DNA of 64,000 nucleotides from an uncultured bacterium (GCA_964607485.1 CAZSKP010000009.1:1-64000), one strand, 5' to 3'. Shown: positions 29,007 through 64,000, counted from the stretch's first letter. Numbers and translations are program-made. The notes: generated from the sequence alone by a model not told the origin.

Positions 29007-30290
29007 TCACGCGTCGCCGGGCATCGGAAACCGGTCGCAGAGTTCCTGCACGCGTTCGCCGATTTTGGCGAGACGAGCTTCGTCGGAGCGCGCGTCCAGG
29101 GCCTCGTCGATGAGTTGCGCGATCAGAACCATCTCCTCCTCGCCCATGCCGCGCGTGGTGACCGCGGGAGTGCCCGGCCTGATGCCGCTGGTGACGGCGG
29201 GACTCTTCTTGTCGAACGGAATCGTGTTCTTGTTTACAGTTATGCCGGCGCGGTCGAGTATCTCGACCGCTTCCTGCCCGGTGACCCCCTTGTTGGTGAG
29301 GTCGATGAGCATCAGGTGCGTGTCGGTGCCGCCCGCGACCAGCCGGAAGCCGCGCTCGCCGAGCTCGGCGGCAAGTCGGGCGGCGTTGCGCGCGATCTTG
29401 CGCTGATAATCGGCGAACTCCTCGGTCATGGCCTCCTTCAGGCAGACTGCCTTGGCGGCGATGACATGCATGAGCGGGCCGCCCTGGATTCCGGGGAAAA
29501 CCGTCTTATCGATTTTCTGCGCATATTTCTTCTTGCACAATACCATGCCGCCGCGAGGCCCGCGCAGCGTCTTGTGCGTGGTCACCGCCACGAAATCGGA
29601 GTGCGGGAATGGACTGGGGTGCACGCCGCCCGCGATCAGCCCGGCGATGTGTGCGATGTCGGCCATCAGGTACGCGCCCACCTCGGAGGCGATCTTGGCA
29701 AACTCGGCGAAGTCGATCGTGCGCGGATAGGCGCTCGCGCCGACGACGATCATCTTCGGCTTACAGGCGTGGGCCTGCTTCCTTATCGCGTCGAAATCGA
29801 GCGTCTCGGTCTTGGGATTCACGCCGTACGCGACGACTTTGAAGAGTTGGCCCGAGAAACTGGCGGGAGCGCCGTGCGTCAGGTGCCCGCCGTGCGACAG
29901 CTCCATGCCCATGATCACGTCGCCCGGCTTCAGGACGCTGAGATACACCGCCATGTTCGCCTGCGTGCCCGAGTGCGGCTGCACGTTCGCGTGTTCCGCC
30001 CCGAACAGTTTCTTAGCGCGCTCGATGGCAAGGTTTTCGACCACGTCCACGTACTCGCAGCCGCCGTAATACCGATGTCCGGGATAGCCCTCGGCGTACT
30101 TGTTGGTCATCACGCAGCCCTGCGCCTCGAGCACGGCGGGGCTGGTGAAATTTTCGGACGGAATCAGTTGCAGCTTGCCGCGCTGCCGCTCATGCTCGCA
30201 GTCGATGGCGCGCGCGACGTCGGGATCCACCTTGGCCAGAACGCCCAGTTTTTCATCTACGGAACGGGAGTTTACAAATTTGGAACACAT
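29007..30290 (-). CDS. glyA: Serine hydroxymethyltransferase
   Basis: [40 protein letters not shown] and FPGIQGGP. Exact start uncertain. Confidence 0.97.
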
Positions 30291-30566
30291 TTTCCCCCCA
30301 AAATAGCTTGACAAGAACTGACAATTATGGTATTACTATCATGCAGGTCCGAGTCCGTCTTTAGGGGCGGGGGTAGGTCCTGCTTTTCATTTCCCGTAAA
30401 AAGGCCTGATAATCCCCTCGGAATCATGGCGCGTAGCCTCTGTCACAAGAATCGGCGCCAACAAACCAAAAGCTTCATTCAGCCCATACCTTTTCCGAGA
30501 GTGCCTCGGACTTTCCATCAGCTTTCCTTCGTGATACAAGAATAAAAACTCTGACTCGGTCCAAGT

Positions 30567-31481
30567 CTATAGAGTCCTATCCGAGGGAAGACGTTTCAGC
30601 CTCTTTGGTTCTTCCGGAGAATACTTTAGCCTTCGGCGTCGCACATCGTCTATTCTCCATCCCATCATAAATATCTCATGACTCCCTATCTTATCGACTT
30701 TCTTGAGTTTTATCTCTTGGCCTGGGAAGAAGGCACCACAGCTCACCTCCTGCGGGGAACAGGAGTTATCGTTTACGCAGACCACTAAGGAATTGGTCTT
30801 GCTCGAAAGGCGTAAGCAAGATCCAAGTGCTTGTGAGAATTTGTTTGTATAGCACGGAACTAGGATAACTTCAATGTCCGCCTTGTTCAAACTCGTAGAG
30901 TTCAATACCTCAAACTTATATTCAGCATTACGGTCGGCCACATCTAGGCAAATCAAGACGCTAATTACTCCAAATTCTGTGTTAATAAGTAGAAATTTCG
31001 GTTTGCCTTTTGGAACTTTACATTCTTCGCCGGCCACTTGGGCCAGATTATATTTGTATTGCTGAAATGGTCTATTCCTATATGGCGTGTATATCAGCGA
31101 AGTATTAAAGAAGGTTCTTGGATCATAATATGAACCGGCAACAATATGTGACCCAAATCTGCCTGCAAAATTTGCCAACTTGCTTTCCAGTCCACGTGCT
31201 CCGTACGGATAAGATAGTTCGCTGAAACAAATAAGATTTGCTCCTTTTCTTGCCGCACTTTGTGCACATTGCAGAAAATTCTTCGAGAAGCTTTTTAGCT
31301 TTGTCTCTTTGAGAACGAAGATGGTGTCATCTCTATCTGCTTTGGAAACAAAACAATCCTCGGGAATATGCATTGACACTAATGCAATTTTTATCTCTGG
31401 ACGACTGACGAACGAAAGAGTCTTTGTTAGAGATAGAGTGTCCTCCTGAATAGTGACATTTTCCTTGCTGGGATTCGACAA
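30567..31481 (-). CDS. Carbon-nitrogen hydrolase (nitrilase superfamily) protein in an AT-rich island
   Basis: Glu-Lys-Cys triad contexts NLICFSELS, QQYKYN and FGVISVLICLD, plus IVAGS and EVILVP; AT-rich codon usage. Confidence 0.75.
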   Translation of the reverse strand: MSNPSKENVTIQEDTLSLTKTLSFVSRPEIKIALVSMHIPEDCFVSKADRDDTIFVLKETKLKSFSKNFLQCAQSAARKGANLICFSELSYPYGARGLESKLANFAGRFGSHIVAGSYYDPRTFFNTSLIYTPYRNRPFQQYKYNLAQVAGEECKVPKGKPKFLLINTEFGVISVLICLDVADRNAEYKFEVLNSTSLNKADIEVILVPCYTNKFSQALGSCLRLSSKTNSLVVCVNDNSCSPQEVSCGAFFPGQEIKLKKVDKIGSHEIFMMGWRIDDVRRRRLKYSPEEPKRLKRLPSDRTL

Positions 31482-31564
31482 GTGTAATGTCTCACCAATT
31501 AGGGGTGCAGGATCATTCTTGAAAATAGGCTGAGATGCTATTGAAAACGAATGGCAGAAGCCAG

Positions 31565-32056
31565 TTAACCAAATCTCTGGTGTATCAGCTTTGTTTTCGC
31601 CAAATTAGCAACCTGTTCTCTGGGCAGACAGATACGTGTTAAGAAAGTACAATAGTCCTGCTCCAATTCCTTGAGATTCTCAATTGTTCCTCTCAGAGTC
31701 TTATTATTTCCCAAAGAAATGTCCGCCCCCTTCTTTCTCTCATCCAGCCTGTAATCGGATATCAGACAAGGATATTCGAAGATCCATTCCGGTATTTCTT
31801 CTAAACTTAATACAAGTGGTCGAGGCAAACCTCTCCGAACACACTGGTGATCGACCTGTTCGATTTGTTCGTTGCATAGGACTCGTTTTTCAGTGAAGGA
31901 AAAGTAAAAGTTCTTCAACTCCTTGTTTTCTTTTTCGAAGCGAAGCCGAACATTTACACTGTCCGAATATTCCCAAACACTTACCCGCCCACAGATTAAT
32001 CCCATAAACGCGTCCTCTCCCATACCCAATGCTGTTCGTAACATTTGACCGAGCAA
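31565..32056 (-). CDS. Hypothetical protein (AT-rich island)
   Basis: 163-aa ORF in AT-rich DNA, co-oriented with its neighbours; no motif recognised. Confidence 0.6.
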   Translation of the reverse strand: MLGQMLRTALGMGEDAFMGLICGRVSVWEYSDSVNVRLRFEKENKELKNFYFSFTEKRVLCNEQIEQVDHQCVRRGLPRPLVLSLEEIPEWIFEYPCLISDYRLDERKKGADISLGNNKTLRGTIENLKELEQDYCTFLTRICLPREQVANLAKTKLIHQRFG

Positions 32057-32057
32057 C

Positions 32058-32945
32058 TCAGTTGTCCGAACCGATCATGCGTGCAAAAGCTTTACTCACT
32101 CTCGCAGGTCCCGCGTCTCTAACAGTCAAAGGAGGGGTCTGGCGCTGGTCATAACAGATGCCAACATGGCTGTCAAATGTGCCATTTCCATTCGTGCTTG
32201 ACTCTAAAACTATCCCTTCTGTGTCTTCACCCGCCAGACCAGCCCATTCAGCGTTTGTTGCTTCAAGATATTCTTGAATTTCTGGCCAGCTTGAGCACCT
32301 CCAACCCTGCCAGAAAATCATTGTTTCTGCAACATTGCGCATCTCCTTATCTGTCTTAATCATTGCTCTGAAATCTATCTCCTCGCCAGCGAGCAAACTG
32401 CTCACGCATCCTGCAAATTCAGGATCCATCGAAGCAACAAATTTGAGACTGATCTTCTTTCCTTTAGAAACTTCCTCGTAAAATCCTTCCTCAACCAATA
32501 TTTTCCGATAGCTATTATAAACAATATCATCAAGGCCGGAGATATATTCGGAACAGGTTGAAAAGAAATTGTGAATCTCTTGTGCATCCAAATTTCCGTT
32601 TGAAGACTGGATCAGAGAACATCTGGACCATATTTTACTTTTGTTTGGTGGAACACAAATCGTAATGGATGGCCTGTACTCGAGCAGAAAACCATTGGAC
32701 CTAAATTGGAGACCGCCGAAAACCAATCCAGGCCCTTCCCGCGACTCATTCTCTGGTTCTAGACTCTTTTCATTCGTGATACGCGTCAAGCAATTCTTGA
32801 TCTCTTTATGGAGAGATATCCATTTGCGGCTCATTGCATTCCTTACTGCAGTAGCCTTCCCATATTCACTGCTGCAGAATCCACGCGGTTTCACAACCAA
32901 GCATGACCTGATCAAAGGGAATCTGTATTGCTTGTCAGCGTACAA
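32058..32945 (-). CDS. Hypothetical protein (AT-rich island)
   Basis: 295-aa ORF in AT-rich DNA, where long chance ORFs are unlikely. Start uncertain; no motif recognised. Confidence 0.65.
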   Translation of the reverse strand: MYADKQYRFPLIRSCLVVKPRGFCSSEYGKATAVRNAMSRKWISLHKEIKNCLTRITNEKSLEPENESREGPGLVFGGLQFRSNGFLLEYRPSITICVPPNKSKIWSRCSLIQSSNGNLDAQEIHNFFSTCSEYISGLDDIVYNSYRKILVEEGFYEEVSKGKKISLKFVASMDPEFAGCVSSLLAGEEIDFRAMIKTDKEMRNVAETMIFWQGWRCSSWPEIQEYLEATNAEWAGLAGEDTEGIVLESSTNGNGTFDSHVGICYDQRQTPPLTVRDAGPARVSKAFARMIGSDN

Positions 32946-33146
32946 GATTACACCTGCCTTCCTCCGGTTGCACTTATCATGCTTGCTCTAACTTCTGTTT
33001 TCCTAAGCACATGGACACACTAATATTATATCCTATAACATAAACTTTTTCAAGAAACTTCCCGCCCATGGGGGATAGATTCTGGTTCGGGCGCTGAAGC
33101 GTAAACTCGGCATTAGTGGGCGATTATTTTCTCTCACGAACAATCT

Positions 33147-33175
33147 ACCATAACGCACGCTAACAAATTTGTCAA
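33147..33175 (-). promoter_or_regulatory. sigma70 promoter for the AT-rich island
   Basis: Minus strand TTGACA-17 nt-TATGGT upstream of the 3-gene island. Confidence 0.55.
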
Positions 33176-33265
33176 GTTGAATGCAATATTCTTCTTTCGT
33201 AGTTCCGCAACGAATGTCCAGGTTCCACGAAGGCCGAACGCGAAGCAGCATTAAGCATACCTTTA

Positions 33266-33700
33266 CTATTCTTCGCCGTCTATTTTGCGGATTCGCCTGA
33301 GGTGGCGTCCCCCCTCGAAGGGAGTTTCCATCCACACGCGGAGTATGTCCCGGGCGGCGGCAAAATCGATGAGCCTCGAGCCGAGCACAAGCACGTTCGC
33401 GTCGTTGTGTGCTCTCGACATCTCTGCCATCCGGGTATTCATGCAGAGCGCGGCGCGGATGCCTTTGTACCTGTTGGCCGTGTAGCTCATCCCCAGTCCG
33501 GTGCCGCATATGAGCACCCCGCGCTCGCATGCATTTGCGAGTATCGTCTCGCACAGTTTCTTGGCAAAATCGGGATAGTCGCAGGATTCGGTGCTATAGC
33601 AGCCGAAGTCTTCCACCTCATGCCCTTCGGATGCGAGATGCTCCTTGACCCTTTCTTTCAGCTCAAATCCAGCGTGGTCAGAAGCTACCGCCAACTTCAT
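33266..33700 (-). CDS. rpiB: Ribose-5-phosphate isomerase B
   Basis: MKLAVASDHAG, DYPD, CGTGLG, HNDAN and FEGGRH.RRI. Confidence 0.96.
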   Translation of the reverse strand: MKLAVASDHAGFELKERVKEHLASEGHEVEDFGCYSTESCDYPDFAKKLCETILANACERGVLICGTGLGMSYTANRYKGIRAALCMNTRMAEMSRAHNDANVLVLGSRLIDFAAARDILRVWMETPFEGGRHLRRIRKIDGEE

Positions 33701-34367
33701 CTGGGTTCCCTTCCTGAGAATACAGTCTCCTGCCAAACTCGGCGACCACGGCGCTCAGCCTGTCAGCCGGGACCGCACCCTCCCTTAATATTACTATTTT
33801 TCGACCGGTAACTTCCACTATCGTTGACGGCAGCTTGCAGGTGCTCGGCCCTCCATCGACAACCGCGTCGATTTCGCCCCTGAAGTACTCCATGGCTTCC
33901 TGCGCGCTCCGTGCAGGCCGGCCTCCAGAGGGGTTGGCGCTTGTGGCAACCAACAGCCCGCCCAGCGCGCCCGCGATGGCGCGGGCGATAGTGTTGTCGG
34001 GCATCCTGACGCAGATCATCCTGCGCGCGTCCAGCACATCGGTCGGAAGATTCCCGGAATCCTCGACCACGAGCGAGACCGGGCCGGGCCAGAATGTCTC
34101 GGCGATGGCCGCAGCGACGGGACTGAGCCTGATTCCCCACTCCGCCAGCCGCTCCGGCTTGTCGATGACGTAGGGAAATGGTTTTGCCCCCTCCCTGCCC
34201 TTGAGTATTCTGACCTTGTGGTTGGCGTCGGAGTTGAAGGCGTCGCCGCCGAGTCCGTAAAGCGTGTCGGTGGGGTAGGCAATCACGCCTCCCTTTTTCA
34301 GCAGCGAGGCGACCTCGTTCACCAGTTTAGGCTCGGGCGCTCTTGTGTTTAGTTCGAATACTTTCAT
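33678..34367 (-). CDS. tsaC: L-threonylcarbamoyladenylate synthase (TsaC/Sua5/YrdC)
   Basis: Starts MKVFEL; YPTDTLYGL, KGR, WPGP, TSANPSG, PSTIV and LREGA. Confidence 0.92.
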   Translation of the reverse strand: MKVFELNTRAPEPKLVNEVASLLKKGGVIAYPTDTLYGLGGDAFNSDANHKVRILKGREGAKPFPYVIDKPERLAEWGIRLSPVAAAIAETFWPGPVSLVVEDSGNLPTDVLDARRMICVRMPDNTIARAIAGALGGLLVATSANPSGGRPARSAQEAMEYFRGEIDAVVDGGPSTCKLPSTIVEVTGRKIVILREGAVPADRLSAVVAEFGRRLYSQEGNPDEVGGSF

Positions 34368-59809: not shown

Positions 59810-59864
59810 TGACTGGGCGGTCACCCAGTCACTTTGTATATCATATCCCCCGAAAACCTGTCAA
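59810..59864 (-). promoter_or_regulatory. TetR promoter and candidate operator
   Basis: TTGACA-18-TATACA (59864-59835) followed by the perfect inverted repeat TGACTGGG-N6-CCCAGTCA (59810-59831). Confidence 0.65.
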
Positions 59865-60019
59865 GCATTTTTTTCCAAGACAGGCTGCGCCCTCATGCCC
59901 CGCAGGAGAGACGCCCGAACATCGCCCGCATATTGACAATCCGCCGGCCCAGCGACAGAATTAGAAAAAGAGAACGTGGCAAAACACCTTCGGGCACAGG
60001 GAAGGAAGGAGGAATACGA

Positions 60020-60427
60020 GTGGGAAAACTGACGGAGGATATCAAGCATTTCCTTGAAGAAGGCCGGCTGGCGTATGTGGCCACGAGCAGCAGCGATGGC
60101 GTGCCCAACGTCGTGCCGAAAGGGTCGCTGGGCGTGCTCGACGACGACCACCTCGTGTTCGCCGACCTCTATTCTCAGAAGACGCGGAAGAACATCGAGG
60201 CGAACCCGCATGTGGCCGTCGCGGTCGTGAACCCGCCCGCATACCAAGGATACCAGTTCAAGGGAAAGGCGGAGATTCTGGATTCGGGGCCCGCATTCGA
60301 GCGGGCGACCGAAATCGTCGATTCGATAAAGATGGACCCGTCGAAGGTCAAGTATGCGGTGGTGATAACGATAGAAGAGATATACGACCTCGCTCCGGGA
60401 CCGAAATCGGGTAAAAGAGTCGCGTGA
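60020..60427 (+). CDS. Pyridoxamine 5'-phosphate oxidase-like (split-barrel flavin-binding) protein
   Basis: GTG after AGGAGG; VATSSSDGVPNVVPKG, KTRKNIEANP, GYQFKGKA and IYDLAPGP..G. Confidence 0.88.
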   Translation: MGKLTEDIKHFLEEGRLAYVATSSSDGVPNVVPKGSLGVLDDDHLVFADLYSQKTRKNIEANPHVAVAVVNPPAYQGYQFKGKAEILDSGPAFERATEIVDSIKMDPSKVKYAVVITIEEIYDLAPGPKSGKRVA

Positions 60428-60488
60428 TGCAAGGCGCGTCGAGCAAAAGACCGGTTGTCCCTTGAACCGGATTGATAAGGAGGCCACC

Positions 60489-60920
60489 ATGAACCAGAGA
60501 GAAGCGAAGAAAAGGGCTCGCAAAATAGTGAATGCCGCCGAGGTGTTTGTGCTGTCAACCGTTGACGGCCGCAACCGTCCGCAGAGCCGCTTCATGGGCG
60601 CAAAGCTGGTTGACAAGGGCATGACCATATACATGGAAACCTATGCCCGCTCGAGGAAGGTGAGACAGATAAAGAAGAATCCGCGCGTCCAATTGCTGTT
60701 CGCGACGAAGAATTATTCAGAAGTTGTCACGCTTTCGGGAAAGGCGTCGATGGATAAATCGGTGGACGTCAGAAAGCGCATCTGGAAGGAGAATCCGGCT
60801 TCGGCAGAATATTTCTCCGGGTATGACGACCCCGCCCTCGGCTTGATCAAATTCAAGCCGGAACGGCTGGAATATTACGGGCCGTCCACCGGATTGGACA
60901 TCATTGAGATAAAGCTGTAA
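60489..60920 (+). CDS. Pyridoxamine 5'-phosphate oxidase-like / general stress protein 26 family
   Basis: ATG after AAGGAGG; LSTVD, PQSRFM, SRKVRQIKKNPRV and YFSGYDDP. Confidence 0.85.
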   Translation: MNQREAKKRARKIVNAAEVFVLSTVDGRNRPQSRFMGAKLVDKGMTIYMETYARSRKVRQIKKNPRVQLLFATKNYSEVVTLSGKASMDKSVDVRKRIWKENPASAEYFSGYDDPALGLIKFKPERLEYYGPSTGLDIIEIKL

Positions 60921-60935: not shown

Positions 60936-61385
60936 TCAACTGATATGCTTCTCCACCAGTTCCTGCAGTTCACGCTTCGGTAGCGCGCCGACCGCCTGTT
61001 CGGCGGGCCGTCCGTCTCGAAACACGATGAGCGTGGGCGTCGCCGTGATTCGGTACGTTCTCGCGCTCTCGGGACTGCTTTCGACATCCAGCTTGCCCAC
61101 CTTTAGCCTGCCCTTATACCGCGAGGCGACGGCCTCAAGCGTCGGTTCCAGGGATCTGCATGCGCCGCACCACGTGGCGAAGAAATCCACGAGCACCGGA
61201 ACATCAGCGCCCAGCACCTCGTCGGCAAACGTGCCGTCGCTCACGCTGAGCGGCCTGTCGGAGGTAGACCCGCGCGGCTCCAGCGTAGCCGAACATTTCC
61301 CGCAGACCGGCTGTTCCCGCTTCTCGCCGTCGAACCGATTGACCGAGCCGCATTGGCGGCATTTGACATAGAGGATTTCGCTCAT
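60936..61385 (-). CDS. trxC: Thioredoxin 2 with N-terminal Zn finger
   Basis: CRQCGSVNR...CGKC, PVLVDFFATWCGAC, ATPTL and GALP. Confidence 0.88.
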   Translation of the reverse strand: MSEILYVKCRQCGSVNRFDGEKREQPVCGKCSATLEPRGSTSDRPLSVSDGTFADEVLGADVPVLVDFFATWCGACRSLEPTLEAVASRYKGRLKVGKLDVESSPESARTYRITATPTLIVFRDGRPAEQAVGALPKRELQELVEKHIS

Positions 61386-61695: not shown

Positions 61696-61753
61696 TTGAC
61701 AAGAGGGGCGACATGGGGTAATATGTGTATATGTGGACACCTTTCCACCTATA
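61696..61753 (+). promoter_or_regulatory. Promoter and candidate ArsR operator
   Basis: TTGACA-17-TAATAT (61696-61724), then the imperfect palindrome TATAtGTGGA-N6-TCCACcTATA (61728-61753). Confidence 0.65.
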
Positions 61754-61765
61754 GCGGAACCGAAA

Positions 61766-62131
61766 ATGACCACCACCACTCCTAAACGCAGGAAACTGCG
61801 GGATGCGTCGGCGGACGACGTCCAGTATTGTCACGACTATTTCGAGCAGCTCTTCCGCACGAACTTTTTCAAGTGTCTCAACGATGAGACGCGGCAGAAA
61901 ATCATCCTGCTGACCGGCCTCGCCGGCGAGGAGGGGATGTGCGTCGCGGAAATCGCCGGCCACTTCAACCTCGACAGGACCACCGTATCACATCACCTGA
62001 CAATGCTGCGCAACAACAACTTGCTTGAAGTGACCAAGCGGGGCAAGGAAAGGTATTACCGGATGAACGTCGATTACGTGATAGGCGCGGTCGAAGAGGT
62101 CGCGAGGATACTCAAAGCCTGCTGCAAATGA
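61766..62131 (+). CDS. ArsR/SmtB family metalloregulator
   Basis: FFKCLNDETRQKII, MCVAEIA, TVSHHLTMLR, RGKERYY and C-terminal ACCK. Confidence 0.92.
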   Translation: MTTTTPKRRKLRDASADDVQYCHDYFEQLFRTNFFKCLNDETRQKIILLTGLAGEEGMCVAEIAGHFNLDRTTVSHHLTMLRNNNLLEVTKRGKERYYRMNVDYVIGAVEEVARILKACCK

Positions 62132-62153
62132 CCAGCATGGAAGAACCTGCGCC

Positions 62154-63743
62154 ATGTCCTACATCTTCATGAAAATACTCGAACGCAAGCCGGCGACATA
62201 CGACGCCGGAATCGCCAAATACGCCGCCGGCGACTTCGCCGAAGTGCGCGACGAGATGCTTTCGCTCGTGAGCCCCGGCGACCGCGTGCTCGACGTGGGG
62301 TGCGGGCCGGGCGCGTTCGCAGTCGAATGCGCAAAGAGGGGCGCGCGGGTCGATGCGGTCGATATCAATCCGCAGATGCTCTACGTCGCCGACCTGGCAG
62401 CAAAGAAGGCAGGGGTCGAGAACAAAATAACGTTTCAGCATGCATCCGCAACCGACGTCGAGGCCGACCGCGGCGCATTCGACCTCGTCGTCTTTTCTCT
62501 CTCGATGAGCGAGCTCAGAGAGGTCGAGCAGTGGATCGCCATGCATTCCGCGTTCGATTTCTTGAAACCGGGCGGAAGGCTCGTGGTGGCCGACGAGGTC
62601 GTTCCGCAGGCGTTCGCGCAGAGGACGTGGTACCATCTCCGCAGGCTGCCGCTTCTCGCGATAACGTACCTGATAACGCGGACGACCACACGGCCCGTTC
62701 GTGAAATGGAAGAACGGTTTCGCGCGTGCGGCTTCGAGGTCGAGCGGACCGAGGCATATGAACGCGGCAGCCTGAAGCTCGTCGTCGGCCACCGCATGGA
62801 GCGGAGACCCGCGCCGGAGGTCTTATCACCGGACAGGCTGCCGCGATGGGTCGAGACGCTGGGCAAAATTTACAGCTACCTCACGCTGGCGTTCAATGAT
62901 GTCCCCATACGAACCGGCCTGTATAAGTTCGGCAATCCCACGGGGGAATCGCCGGTGCTCGTGACCGCAAACTATCTCTTGACCTTCACGTCGGTCAAGA
63001 AGCATCTCCGGGGGCTGGATTGTTATCTGCTCGTCGTCGATACGCGCGGAATCAATGTGTGGTGCTCGGCGGGGAAGGGCAACTTCTCGGCCGAGGAGAT
63101 TCATACCTCCTTGCGCGCGACACGAGCCGAGGATGTTACCGAAACGCGCAAGCTGATCCTGCCGAAGCTCTCGGCCAACGGCGTCAAGTACCGCGATGTC
63201 GAAAGGCTCAGCGGCTGGAAGGCGGCATTCGGCCCCGTGTATGCGCGGGACATACCCGATTACCTGGCCAACGGCTTTGCCGAGGGCGAACGGATGAAGC
63301 GGGTGAGGTTCGAGCTGGCCGACCGGCTTTGGGTCGGCCCGCCGTTTGCGCTGTTCGTGGCCTTCTGGTTCCTGTTGCCACTGCTGATTTTCCACAGCTT
63401 GTATTCTCCCGCGATCCCGGCCATTGCGCTCGCGGCCGGCCTCATCTTTCCGGCCGCGTTCTATATCCTGCCGACGGACCAGTTCTTCAAGAAAGGGCTG
63501 GTTCTGGGGCTTGCGGGAGCGGTAGGAGCGGGCATCTTGCTGCTCGTTGCGGGCGCGCCAGCCAAGGACATAGTCCAGTGGGCGCTCATCATAGTCGGCG
63601 TCACGATGTTCGTGGCGATAGACTTCTCGGGAATGTCGCCGGTGAGCAATTACAGCAAAATAAGGGAGGAGTATTACGTCGTCCTTCCCTTGTTGGTGTT
63701 GATAGTGATAAGCTATATAGTAGTGAGTTATCTGTGGAGGTGA
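62154..63743 (+). CDS. Class I SAM methyltransferase fused to an HgcA-like corrinoid-binding/transmembrane protein
   Basis: About aa 1-215: VLDVGCGPG, FDLVV, LKPGGRLVVAD. From about aa 250: GLYKFGNP..ESPVLVTANYLLTF, DTRGINVWCSAGKGNF, LILPKLSANGV, FGPVYARDIPDYL, MKRVRF, then about 5 TM helices. Confidence 0.9.
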   Translation: MSYIFMKILERKPATYDAGIAKYAAGDFAEVRDEMLSLVSPGDRVLDVGCGPGAFAVECAKRGARVDAVDINPQMLYVADLAAKKAGVENKITFQHASATDVEADRGAFDLVVFSLSMSELREVEQWIAMHSAFDFLKPGGRLVVADEVVPQAFAQRTWYHLRRLPLLAITYLITRTTTRPVREMEERFRACGFEVERTEAYERGSLKLVVGHRMERRPAPEVLSPDRLPRWVETLGKIYSYLTLAFNDVPIRTGLYKFGNPTGESPVLVTANYLLTFTSVKKHLRGLDCYLLVVDTRGINVWCSAGKGNFSAEEIHTSLRATRAEDVTETRKLILPKLSANGVKYRDVERLSGWKAAFGPVYARDIPDYLANGFAEGERMKRVRFELADRLWVGPPFALFVAFWFLLPLLIFHSLYSPAIPAIALAAGLIFPAAFYILPTDQFFKKGLVLGLAGAVGAGILLLVAGAPAKDIVQWALIIVGVTMFVAIDFSGMSPVSNYSKIREEYYVVLPLLVLIVISYIVVSYLWR

Positions 63744-63748
63744 CGGTA

Positions 63749-64000
63749 ATGATAGCGCTGGATCGGGAAAAATGTGTAGGCTGCGGCGATTGCGCGAACG
63801 TCTGTCCGCAGCAGTGCTACACAATGGGCGACGACCACAAGAGCGTGCATGCATTCCCCGACAGATGCATGGAGTGCGGCGCATGCAGCCTCAACTGCCG
63901 CGCGCAGGCCATCTCGATGGAGGCCGGGCCCGGCTGCATCGTTTACATAATAAAGGAACAGCTGTTCGGCAAAACCGCCGCGGCGGACAGCGAGACCTGT
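63749..64000 (+). CDS. HgcB-like 2[4Fe-4S] ferredoxin, truncated by the window end
   Basis: Not in the ORF track. ATG 63749 after GGAGG: MIALDREKCVGCGDCANVCPQQCYTMGDDHKSVHAFPDRCMECGACSLNCRAQAISMEAGPGCIVYIIKEQLFGKTAAADSETC... Confidence 0.9.
   Translation, partial: MIALDREKCVGCGDCANVCPQQCYTMGDDHKSVHAFPDRCMECGACSLNCRAQAISMEAGPGCIVYIIKEQLFGKTAAADSETC

Follow-up and report, generated by a model that had tools for sequence, protein, structure and literature searches.

The closest described relatives of the locus considered here are HgcA and HgcB, the corrinoid protein and ferredoxin of microbial mercury methylation, and the pairing of a CpaM-type methyltransferase with an HgcA paralogue, which NCBI has already named. 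Which compound donates the methyl group in mercury methylation was disputed for many years, and biochemistry published in 2024 names S-adenosylmethionine (SAM): in purified HgcAB, with HgcB carrying two clusters, SAM is described as methylating cobalamin to give methyl-cob(III)alamin, with cysteine ligation (PMC11588087). In Pseudodesulfovibrio, hgcAB is reported to be co-transcribed with an ArsR-like regulator that controls it and responds to arsenic and S-adenosylhomocysteine (10.1101/2022.10.17.512643). The subject of this text is positions 61,696–64,000 of a 64,000-nucleotide stretch of DNA from an uncultured bacterium (GCA_964607485.1 CAZSKP010000009.1:1-64000), called the window in its full length; it is the initial 64 kb of contig C9 in a genome assembly of 93 contigs and 4.7 Mb, and the runs that hold it are all labelled sediment metagenome, with no RNA run listed among them. 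Its end carries a real three-gene unit, arsR–cpaM::hgcA′–hgcB′, with its own promoter and operator, in which a CpaM-type SAM methyltransferase and an HgcA-like corrinoid protein are one polypeptide. Profile scores and trees, set out below, suggest that this fused protein belongs to a distinct CpaM-associated lineage of HgcA paralogues. The features of the unit, in nucleotides (nt) counted from the first letter of the window and residues (aa) of the respective protein, are as follows.

61696–61724, plus strand: sigma-70-type promoter, −35 TTGACA at 61696–61701, 17-nt spacer, −10 TAATAT at 61719–61724 (promoter scan, 10/12 matches).
61729–61752, no strand assigned: operator-like imperfect palindrome, ATATGTGGA-N6-TCCACCTAT, immediately 3′ of the −10 box (9-locus consensus).
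61766–62131, plus strand: arsR-like gene, 121 aa from ATG (NCBIfam ArsR/SmtB, Pfam HTH_5).
62154–63743, plus strand: fused gene, 529 aa, comprising a CpaM-type SAM methyltransferase, a linker, an HgcA-like corrinoid domain and a domain of five transmembrane (TM) helices (open reading frame, Pfam, NCBIfam).
62157–62792, plus strand: methyltransferase domain, aa 2–213 (CpaM model NF043040).
62859–63308, plus strand: corrinoid-binding domain of the corrinoid iron–sulfur protein (CFeSP) type, aa 236 to ~385 (PF03599 (CdhD), 57.1 bits, aa 254–370).
63054–63077, plus strand: cap helix NVWCSAGK, N301–K308, with Cys304 (translation, model).
63315–63734, plus strand: membrane domain with five predicted TM helices, aa 388–527 (hydropathy, DSSP of the model).
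63749–64000, plus strand: HgcB-like 2x[4Fe-4S] ferredoxin gene, extending 6 nt past the window, stop codon included.

The original prediction had read here an arsR gene, an uninterrupted open reading frame (ORF) of 529 residues and a ferredoxin beginning 5 nt later, and ORF calls and translation bear out all three in place. The fused ORF runs from 62154 to 63743 without an internal stop, 22 nt separating it from arsR, and its TGA at 63741–63743 is followed after 5 nt by the ferredoxin ATG at 63749. Every motif that had been picked out can be read from the translation as well: VLDVGCGPG, the corrinoid motifs SPVLVTANY, GINVWCSAGKG and FGPVYARDIPDYL, and, in the ferredoxin, CMECGAC. The TM helices, put beforehand at about five, number five by hydropathy (hydrophobic segments between aa 393 and 527) and five in an AlphaFold2 model (388–412, 420–435, 444–465, 470–492 and 500–527). 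This model, built on an alignment of 52 fused proteins, reaches a mean predicted local distance difference test (pLDDT) score of 88.7 and a predicted template-modelling (pTM) score of 0.84, the latter, taken over the whole chain, suggesting that the domain arrangement is fixed. It comprises a Rossmann domain, a long CpaM-specific helix at 154–175 and the cap helix at 302–308. Among its fold matches, 9a0b_A, a published computed model of HgcAB, ranks first, with 37% identity over 325 columns; a sequence search for an experimental HgcA structure found none.

The join between the two halves is not an assembly or frameshift artefact, the danger that the original prediction had attached to it. A database search listed 120 clusters, and among these matches, to which the fusion counts below refer, 65 combine a methyltransferase with a PF03599 domain. 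The fused gene recurs in three of nine sister genomes of the same family, at 70–71% identity, and contigs from other runs span the domain junction without indels (X4 at 62747–62897, X2 at 62829–63075), although these runs, of the same study, are not fully independent, and X1, covering the stretch from end to end, may itself be the source. One orthologous fused gene, on metagenome contig L115 (1368–2989), is split over two overlapping frames, either as a frameshift pseudogene or through an assembly error.

The 65 fusions fall into four groups. The group of the window, fusI, holds 18 listed clusters at 66–91% identity, mostly of 523–529 aa, whose sources, where named, are metagenome-assembled genomes (MAGs) of Hydrogenedentota, Poribacteria and Abyssubacteria; a 322-aa fragment, P0021, comes from a Lindowbacteria MAG. 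The fusII group holds 24 listed clusters (38–43% identity, 510–537 aa), and fusIII seven two-domain clusters with an HgcAB-like corrinoid half, while 16 listed clusters of 582–599 aa are triple fusions that include the ferredoxin. One 527-aa fusion (P0038), in fusII, bears the NCBI label CpaM. A library of 1.84 billion proteins, clustered at 50% identity, reduces fusI to one full-length representative and has about two dozen full-length fusion representatives in all. Among 201 sampled genomes, CpaM scores above its cut-off in nine, at 10 places, and at least nine of these 10 are fused to or adjoin an HgcA-like gene; in that sample the two-domain fusion is confined to the family of the window, and elsewhere there are one triple fusion and four separate forms. 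All arrangements are thus found: separate CpaM and HgcAB-like genes (contig C2 of the same assembly, L027, L033, L034, L036, L037, L043 and L045), a CpaM–HgcA′ fusion with a separate ferredoxin (the locus itself, L012, L014 from a Chloroflexi MAG, and L015 from a Hermodarchaeota MAG, with MarR upstream) and the triple fusion (L013). An association that appears obligatory across all fusion states supports a functional coupling of the three modules. The fused architecture had been singled out beforehand as the notable part; its novelty was overstated, since the CpaM family is already named (NF043040), fusions are numerous and triple fusions exist. The literature matches listed contain no description of a methyltransferase–HgcA fusion, two of the lists being the best 25 and 20 of thousands of noisy matches, and the phrases "corrinoid protein-associated methyltransferase" and "HgcAB-like" are likewise absent from the matches listed.

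The methyltransferase half is a member of CpaM by score. It matches NF043040, a model that NCBI types as "hypoth_equivalog", at 245.9 bits against a cut-off of 180 (248.8 bits in the genome search), over profile positions 1–215 of 216, and when 84 of the 120 listed matches were scored on NCBIfam models for calibration, 30 of 31 fused proteins passed the same cut-off. The SAM motif VLDVGCGPG occupies aa 45–53, and Pfam Methyltransf_25 is matched at 68 bits over aa 45–141. Invariant in the 52 fused proteins are the methyltransferase columns G49, G51, G53, D70 and D110, the CpaM-specific residues S119, E120, E148, P151, R164 and T179, and, in the other half, N301, W303 and C304 of the cap helix. 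Because SAM-binding and cap-helix residues are both invariant, both halves look active. The best relatives of the domain after CpaM are BchM, UbiG/UbiE, RebM and MitM by sequence, and by fold it resembles RebM, MitM, Coq5, TleD and phosphatidylethanolamine N-methyltransferase. Its only cysteines are Cys50, Cys59 and Cys192, Cys50 alone being nearly invariant. Direct methylation of arsenite by this domain, in the manner of ArsM, is unlikely: a conserved cysteine set is missing, and ArsM models give 49 bits.

The corrinoid half, by profile and by tree, is close to HgcA, yet is neither true HgcA nor HgcAB-like in the sense of NCBIfam, a placement that follows from failed cut-offs together with clade separation. 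Residues 236–524 score 228.3 bits on the HgcA model NF040863, below its cut-off of 275 (229.1 in the genome search), and 218 bits on the HgcAB-like model NF043039, below its cut-off of 285; six full-length close relatives behave alike (210–238 and 208–237 bits, respectively). In the calibration set, 48 of 51 stand-alone proteins score 363–478 bits on the HgcA model. A profile search of the window's own genome found no protein above the HgcA cut-off. The resemblance to HgcA and HgcB that had first been noticed is genuine, and it stops short of family membership, the ferredoxin scoring 77.2 bits on the HgcB model against a cut-off of 99. What does hold up is the more cautious alternative offered alongside it, an HgcA paralogue that does not methylate mercury, with which both the score of 228.3 against 275 and the position outside the HgcA clade agree. 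Nor does the corrinoid domain group with CFeSP, an outcome that had been named as fatal to the idea. A CFeSP of the Wood–Ljungdahl pathway is rejected as its identity by a score of 83.3 bits against 306 (NF003195) and by the presence of a real CFeSP on contig C60; an ordinary CFeSP is also present in nine of nine sister genomes, and CFeSP is the outgroup in all trees.

For the phylogeny, a profile built on A1 served to excise the HgcA-like region of 82 proteins, the partial matches L018 and L043 were dropped, and an IQ-TREE analysis of 80 rows and 311 columns was rooted on three CFeSP sequences. The true HgcA clade (28 rows) and the fusI clade (nine rows) are each supported at 100/99, and the fused protein of the window lies in fusI, separate from HgcA. 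The fusI clade joins part of fusII and two long-branch proteins at 98/94, and support is moderate for a group of HgcAB-like proteins, fusIII and the triple fusions. When the long branches are removed, the clades persist in a tree of 36 rows, HgcA at 93/80 and fusI at 99/97. One sister genome, G003, holds the fused module together with a true hgcAB (450.6 and 112.4 bits), and because both are present there, they are unlikely to be redundant.

Several HgcA-like proteins of other kinds turned up beside these clades. On a contig of an uncultured Nitrospina MAG (L041 4001–5499) and in L098 (genome G013), an HgcA-like gene is directly preceded by a CpaM-like methyltransferase, which the window's own domain, used as query, matches at 120 bits, a value that is not an NF043040 score. 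The Nitrospina HgcA-like protein, a proposed marine mercury methylator in the literature, is placed in the tree on the HgcAB-like side, at the end of a long branch and outside true HgcA. Its CpaM-like neighbour fits the "UbiE methyltransferase" that Villar et al. (10.1101/648329) draw beside Nitrospina HgcA-like genes. Five other HgcA-like proteins, P0137, P0228, P0233, P0100 and P0113, bear N-terminal extensions of ~200–320 residues that do not align with the methyltransferase half and could represent additional fusion partners. P0100 and P0113, which have no methyltransferase domain, lie together on a very long branch beside the fused clades.

The ferredoxin, preceded by GGAGG just 5′ of its ATG, is on the contig a protein of 85 aa ending in ...SETCC. 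Its best model is HgcB (NF040864), matched over the whole profile and, as stated, below the cut-off; two orthologues score 75.2 and 77.7 bits, and the true HgcB of G003 scores 112.4. Both CX2CX2CX3C motifs are present, as are CMECGAC, an internal cysteine in GPGC and a CC at the C-terminus. The internal cysteine (compare Cys73 of ND132) is present in all four complete fusI ferredoxins. True HgcB sequences compared carry both this cysteine and the terminal pair, and the HgcAB-like and triple fusions compared have neither. Because triple fusions exist, the ferredoxin very likely binds the fused protein.

The regulator and its control region complete the unit. The ORF table starts arsR at a GTG (61733), and alignment with eight orthologues makes the ATG at 61766 the likely start. 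The product scores 68.1 bits on the ArsR/SmtB metalloregulator model NF033788 (cut-off 55) and 35.8 bits on HTH_5. Cys22, Cys37 and a C-terminal Cys119–Cys120 pair are each kept in eight of nine orthologues, while the alpha-3 position is a cysteine in only two of the nine, a pattern that differs from the four-cysteine site in the description available for ArsR2 of ND132. It is the family of the regulator and these conserved cysteines that hint at a metal(loid)-inducible control. The reported feature begins at 61696, which in the promoter scan is the leading base of the promoter match. Upstream DNA is available for nine fusI loci (four genomes and five metagenome contigs), at most eight of them distinct, since L114 and L119 are identical in this region. 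Across these nine aligned regions of close loci, the −35 hexamer does not vary, and the −10 box is kept at identical spacing; 3′ of the latter, the nine-locus consensus is a perfect 10-6-10 inverted repeat (TATATGTGGA/TCCACATATA), with which the window copy agrees at 17 of 18 core arm positions and the remaining eight copies at 15–16 of 18. An inverted-repeat search with an exact 6-nt seed did not report this operator, because every copy is imperfect, and it was the consensus analysis that recovered it. The palindrome at 61729–61752 is presumably the ArsR binding site.

Gene order is kept together with these elements. An orthologous arsR lies directly 5′ of the fused gene in all nine fusI loci that hold upstream DNA, and a ferredoxin gene lies 3′ of it in all five that hold downstream DNA, as it does in L012, L014 and L015. 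In L117, a more distant ArsR precedes the fused gene, and no arsR was found beside the fusII, fusIII or triple-fusion loci L012–L015 and L017. On this comparison of loci, promoter, operator and three genes behave as a conserved unit. The distance from the fused gene to the ferredoxin is less constant: in sister genomes L092 (3088–3219) and L093 (3088–3467), the spacer measures 130–380 nt against 5 nt in the window, and it holds copies of a short repeated element recurring within and between the two spacers, reminiscent of repetitive extragenic palindromes or miniature inverted-repeat transposable elements (REP/MITE-like).

What such a unit might do can be framed as follows. We consider it rather probable that the locus is an autoregulated module that passes a methyl group from SAM to a Co(I) corrinoid and on to a thiophilic acceptor, with the ferredoxin re-reducing the cobalt; the mechanism itself we infer. 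The ArsR-family repressor would sit on the palindrome overlapping the transcription start and be released when its conserved cysteines take a thiophilic ligand, which may be the acceptor itself or a related compound. The N-terminal class-I methyltransferase domain would then bind SAM and methylate the Co(I) corrinoid that the same polypeptide holds beneath its Cys304 cap helix, and placing this SAM-to-cobalt step on one chain is probably the best mechanistic reading of the fusion. The resulting methyl-Co(III), kept at the membrane by the five-TM domain, would donate its methyl group to an electrophilic acceptor, after which the separate 2x[4Fe-4S] ferredoxin would restore Co(I), its free cysteines perhaps handing over the acceptor. 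As acceptor, a soft metal or metalloid is favoured over an organic substrate; mercury, as Hg(II), is possible and, judged by family membership, is not the default.

A number of observations weigh against this scheme. We know of no class-I Rossmann methyltransferase that methylates a protein-bound corrinoid. The CpaM domain has no ArsM-like cysteine set, and the terminal CC of the ferredoxin occurs in only two of four complete fusI ferredoxins, L093 and L115 lacking it. In the 36-row tree, HgcA, the fused clades and the HgcAB-like proteins form a polytomy of four lineages. No ars, acr3, mer or metal-transport gene flanks any of 10 fused loci (the window's own, L012–L015, L017, L092, L093, L115 and L117). 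Finally, purified HgcAB is described as taking the methyl group of SAM without any methyltransferase (PMC11588087), and because of this the CpaM domain may serve some purpose other than cobalt loading. As a separate matter, cobalamin genes were not found among the neighbours of the fused loci examined.

The most conspicuous competitor to the general thiophilic module is a genuine mercury methylase, that is, an HgcAB variant with a built-in SAM loader representing a second, unrecognised lineage of Hg(II) methylators. In the consensus protocol, as cited, a "high-stringency" hgcA is defined by six cap-helix motifs, NVWCSAGK included, and a high-stringency hgcB by C(M/I)ECGA on the same contig (10.1101/2022.03.14.484253), and the NVWCSAGK and CMECGA of the window, on one contig, satisfy both. 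Among the listed clusters, an accepted cap-helix motif is found in 11 of 21 fusI and in 49 of 51 stand-alone proteins, and in none of 25 fusII or 23 fusIII and triple fusions; the window ferredoxin shares its internal GPGC cysteine and C-terminal CC with true HgcB, and the co-transcription of hgcAB with ArsR-like regulators reported for Pseudodesulfovibrio (10.1101/2022.10.17.512643) resembles the present layout. Yet the two proteins fall short of both curated cut-offs (228.3 against 275 for HgcA, where true clusters reach 363–478, and 77.2 against 99 for HgcB), the HgcA clade excludes the window protein at 100/99, and G003 keeps the fused module alongside a true hgcAB. In addition, the fused HgcAB proteins of P. 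furiosus and M. methylutens, the only cultured paralogues assayed, gave in the cited accounts no methylmercury above controls (PMC4646819, PMC5893877), although these belong to a different clade. Taken with the weight of the scores, a mercury methylase is an unlikely identity.

Were the acceptor organic instead, the module would methylate a molecule in the membrane, probably a lipophilic one (for example a quinone, a lipid or a natural-product intermediate), and the regulator would sense something other than a metal, for instance redox state or a thiol-reactive compound. Small organic molecules are indeed the substrates of the best relatives that the methyltransferase domain has after CpaM, a five-TM domain ties the corrinoid domain to the membrane, and metal genes are absent from all neighbourhoods examined. 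Transfer of a methyl group from cobalamin to carbon, however, normally requires a radical-SAM partner, and the locus has none; the genes next to it vary from one locus to another (L13 ribosomal protein, PNPOx-like, CYTH, peptidase), leaving a self-contained module with no pathway context for an organic substrate, and a cysteine-rich regulator and a ferredoxin better suit a thiophilic ligand. This makes an organic substrate quite improbable. Further still from what the locus suggests is a non-methylating cobalamin chemistry, such as reductive dehalogenation of halomethanes, with the methyltransferase domain in an accessory or regulatory role. Heterologously expressed HgcAB is reported to dechlorinate CCl4 (10.64898/2026.04.26.720869), but that result, as cited, concerns true HgcAB and not its paralogues, and an intact SAM methyltransferase is strictly coupled to the corrinoid protein in every fusion state; because of this coupling, methyl transfer is probably the core function, and dehalogenation appears very improbable indeed.

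The boldest version of the argument makes fusI a second lineage of environmental methylators, its members being self-charging methylases that act on mercury or on another soft metal(loid); this is a speculation that we hold with considerable doubt. If it were true, the HgcA superfamily would have arisen around a dedicated SAM-to-cobalt loader that true HgcA later dispensed with; the fusion would prove, as a natural "Rosetta stone", that the physiological methyl group comes from SAM and not from methyl-tetrahydrofolate; and organisms like the sediment bacterium of the window, which motif-based hgcA surveys count or miscount, would make methylated metals under a thiol-based ArsR switch. Other implications are more modest. 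Throughout the family, HgcA-type corrinoid proteins are tied to a SAM methyltransferase, obligatorily and in many cases covalently, which lends independent genomic support to SAM-to-cobalt chemistry in this superfamily, and a fused protein with a split ferredoxin offers a compact two-gene object for probing it. The high-stringency motif rules for hgcA and hgcB let fusI through, and yet it branches apart from the proven methylators. Mercury-methylation potential estimated from metagenomes may therefore include it, wrongly or rightly, and a check for length or for a methyltransferase domain would flag it in hgcA surveys. The conserved ArsR, promoter and operator, for their part, could provide a handle on the inducer and thereby on the natural substrate of HgcA paralogues.

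The surroundings of the unit call for brief comment. On contig C9, 45 nt past the ferredoxin and on the same strand, ~64052–64642 (L001 3399–3989) encodes a 196-aa protein made up solely of a molybdopterin-binding oxidoreductase domain (Oxidored_molyb, PF00174, 149.8 bits); as a partner of the module it was rejected, with no match in 55 other loci scanned, including L092, L093 and L115. On the other side, close to the module, 60936–61385 (minus strand) encodes a thioredoxin whose N-terminal extension is CxxC-rich, preceded by two PNPOx-like flavoprotein genes at 59834–60920 (plus strand), which also occur upstream in L092 and L093 and not in L115. Farther away, positions 30001–34000 have a guanine-plus-cytosine fraction of 0.45–0.50 against 0.56–0.64 elsewhere in the window and may be a foreign island.

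It remains to set the locus against the systems with which this text began. Compared with the large subunit of CFeSP, AcsC/CdhE (4djd_C, 2h9a_A), the window protein has the PF03599 fold in common (41 bits to 4djd_C) and does not have the N-terminal [4Fe-4S] and TIM-barrel parts. With HgcA and HgcB (NF040863/NF040864) it shares the NVWCSAGK cap helix with its cysteine, the five-TM domain, an adjacent ferredoxin with CMECGAC, the internal cysteine and the C-terminal CC, and, upstream, a gene of the ArsR family, which some hgcAB loci have too. Identity to true HgcA is 34–39%, and the N-terminal methyltransferase sets the protein apart, as none of 48 stand-alone true-HgcA clusters has one. A further close system is the CpaM plus HgcAB-like pair (NF043040/NF043039; the "fused HgcAB" of Podar et al. 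2015), which has all three modules of the locus; the CpaM half is a member of that family, and the corrinoid half falls on the CpaM-associated side of the 80-row tree. The fusion point is swapped, however, in that the window has the methyltransferase fused and the ferredoxin separate, its cap helix and ferredoxin cysteines are far nearer to those of HgcA and HgcB than are the cap helix and cysteines of HgcAB-like proteins, and the unit comes with a dedicated ArsR regulator and a conserved operator. A canonical copy of the pair is present in the same organism: on contig C2 (187638–189037; L002 350–2166, minus strand), a 221-aa stand-alone CpaM (291.6 bits) overlaps an HgcAB-like fusion protein (464.7 bits) at the start of the latter, so that this organism has two different CpaM–corrinoid systems and no true HgcA. 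By these comparisons, the fused protein would represent a distinct CpaM-associated lineage of HgcA paralogues, the mirror image of the CpaM plus HgcAB-like pair, and what is new and apparently undescribed in it is the swapped fusion point, a clade of its own, a cap helix and cysteines like those of HgcA and HgcB, and the dedicated ArsR with its operator.

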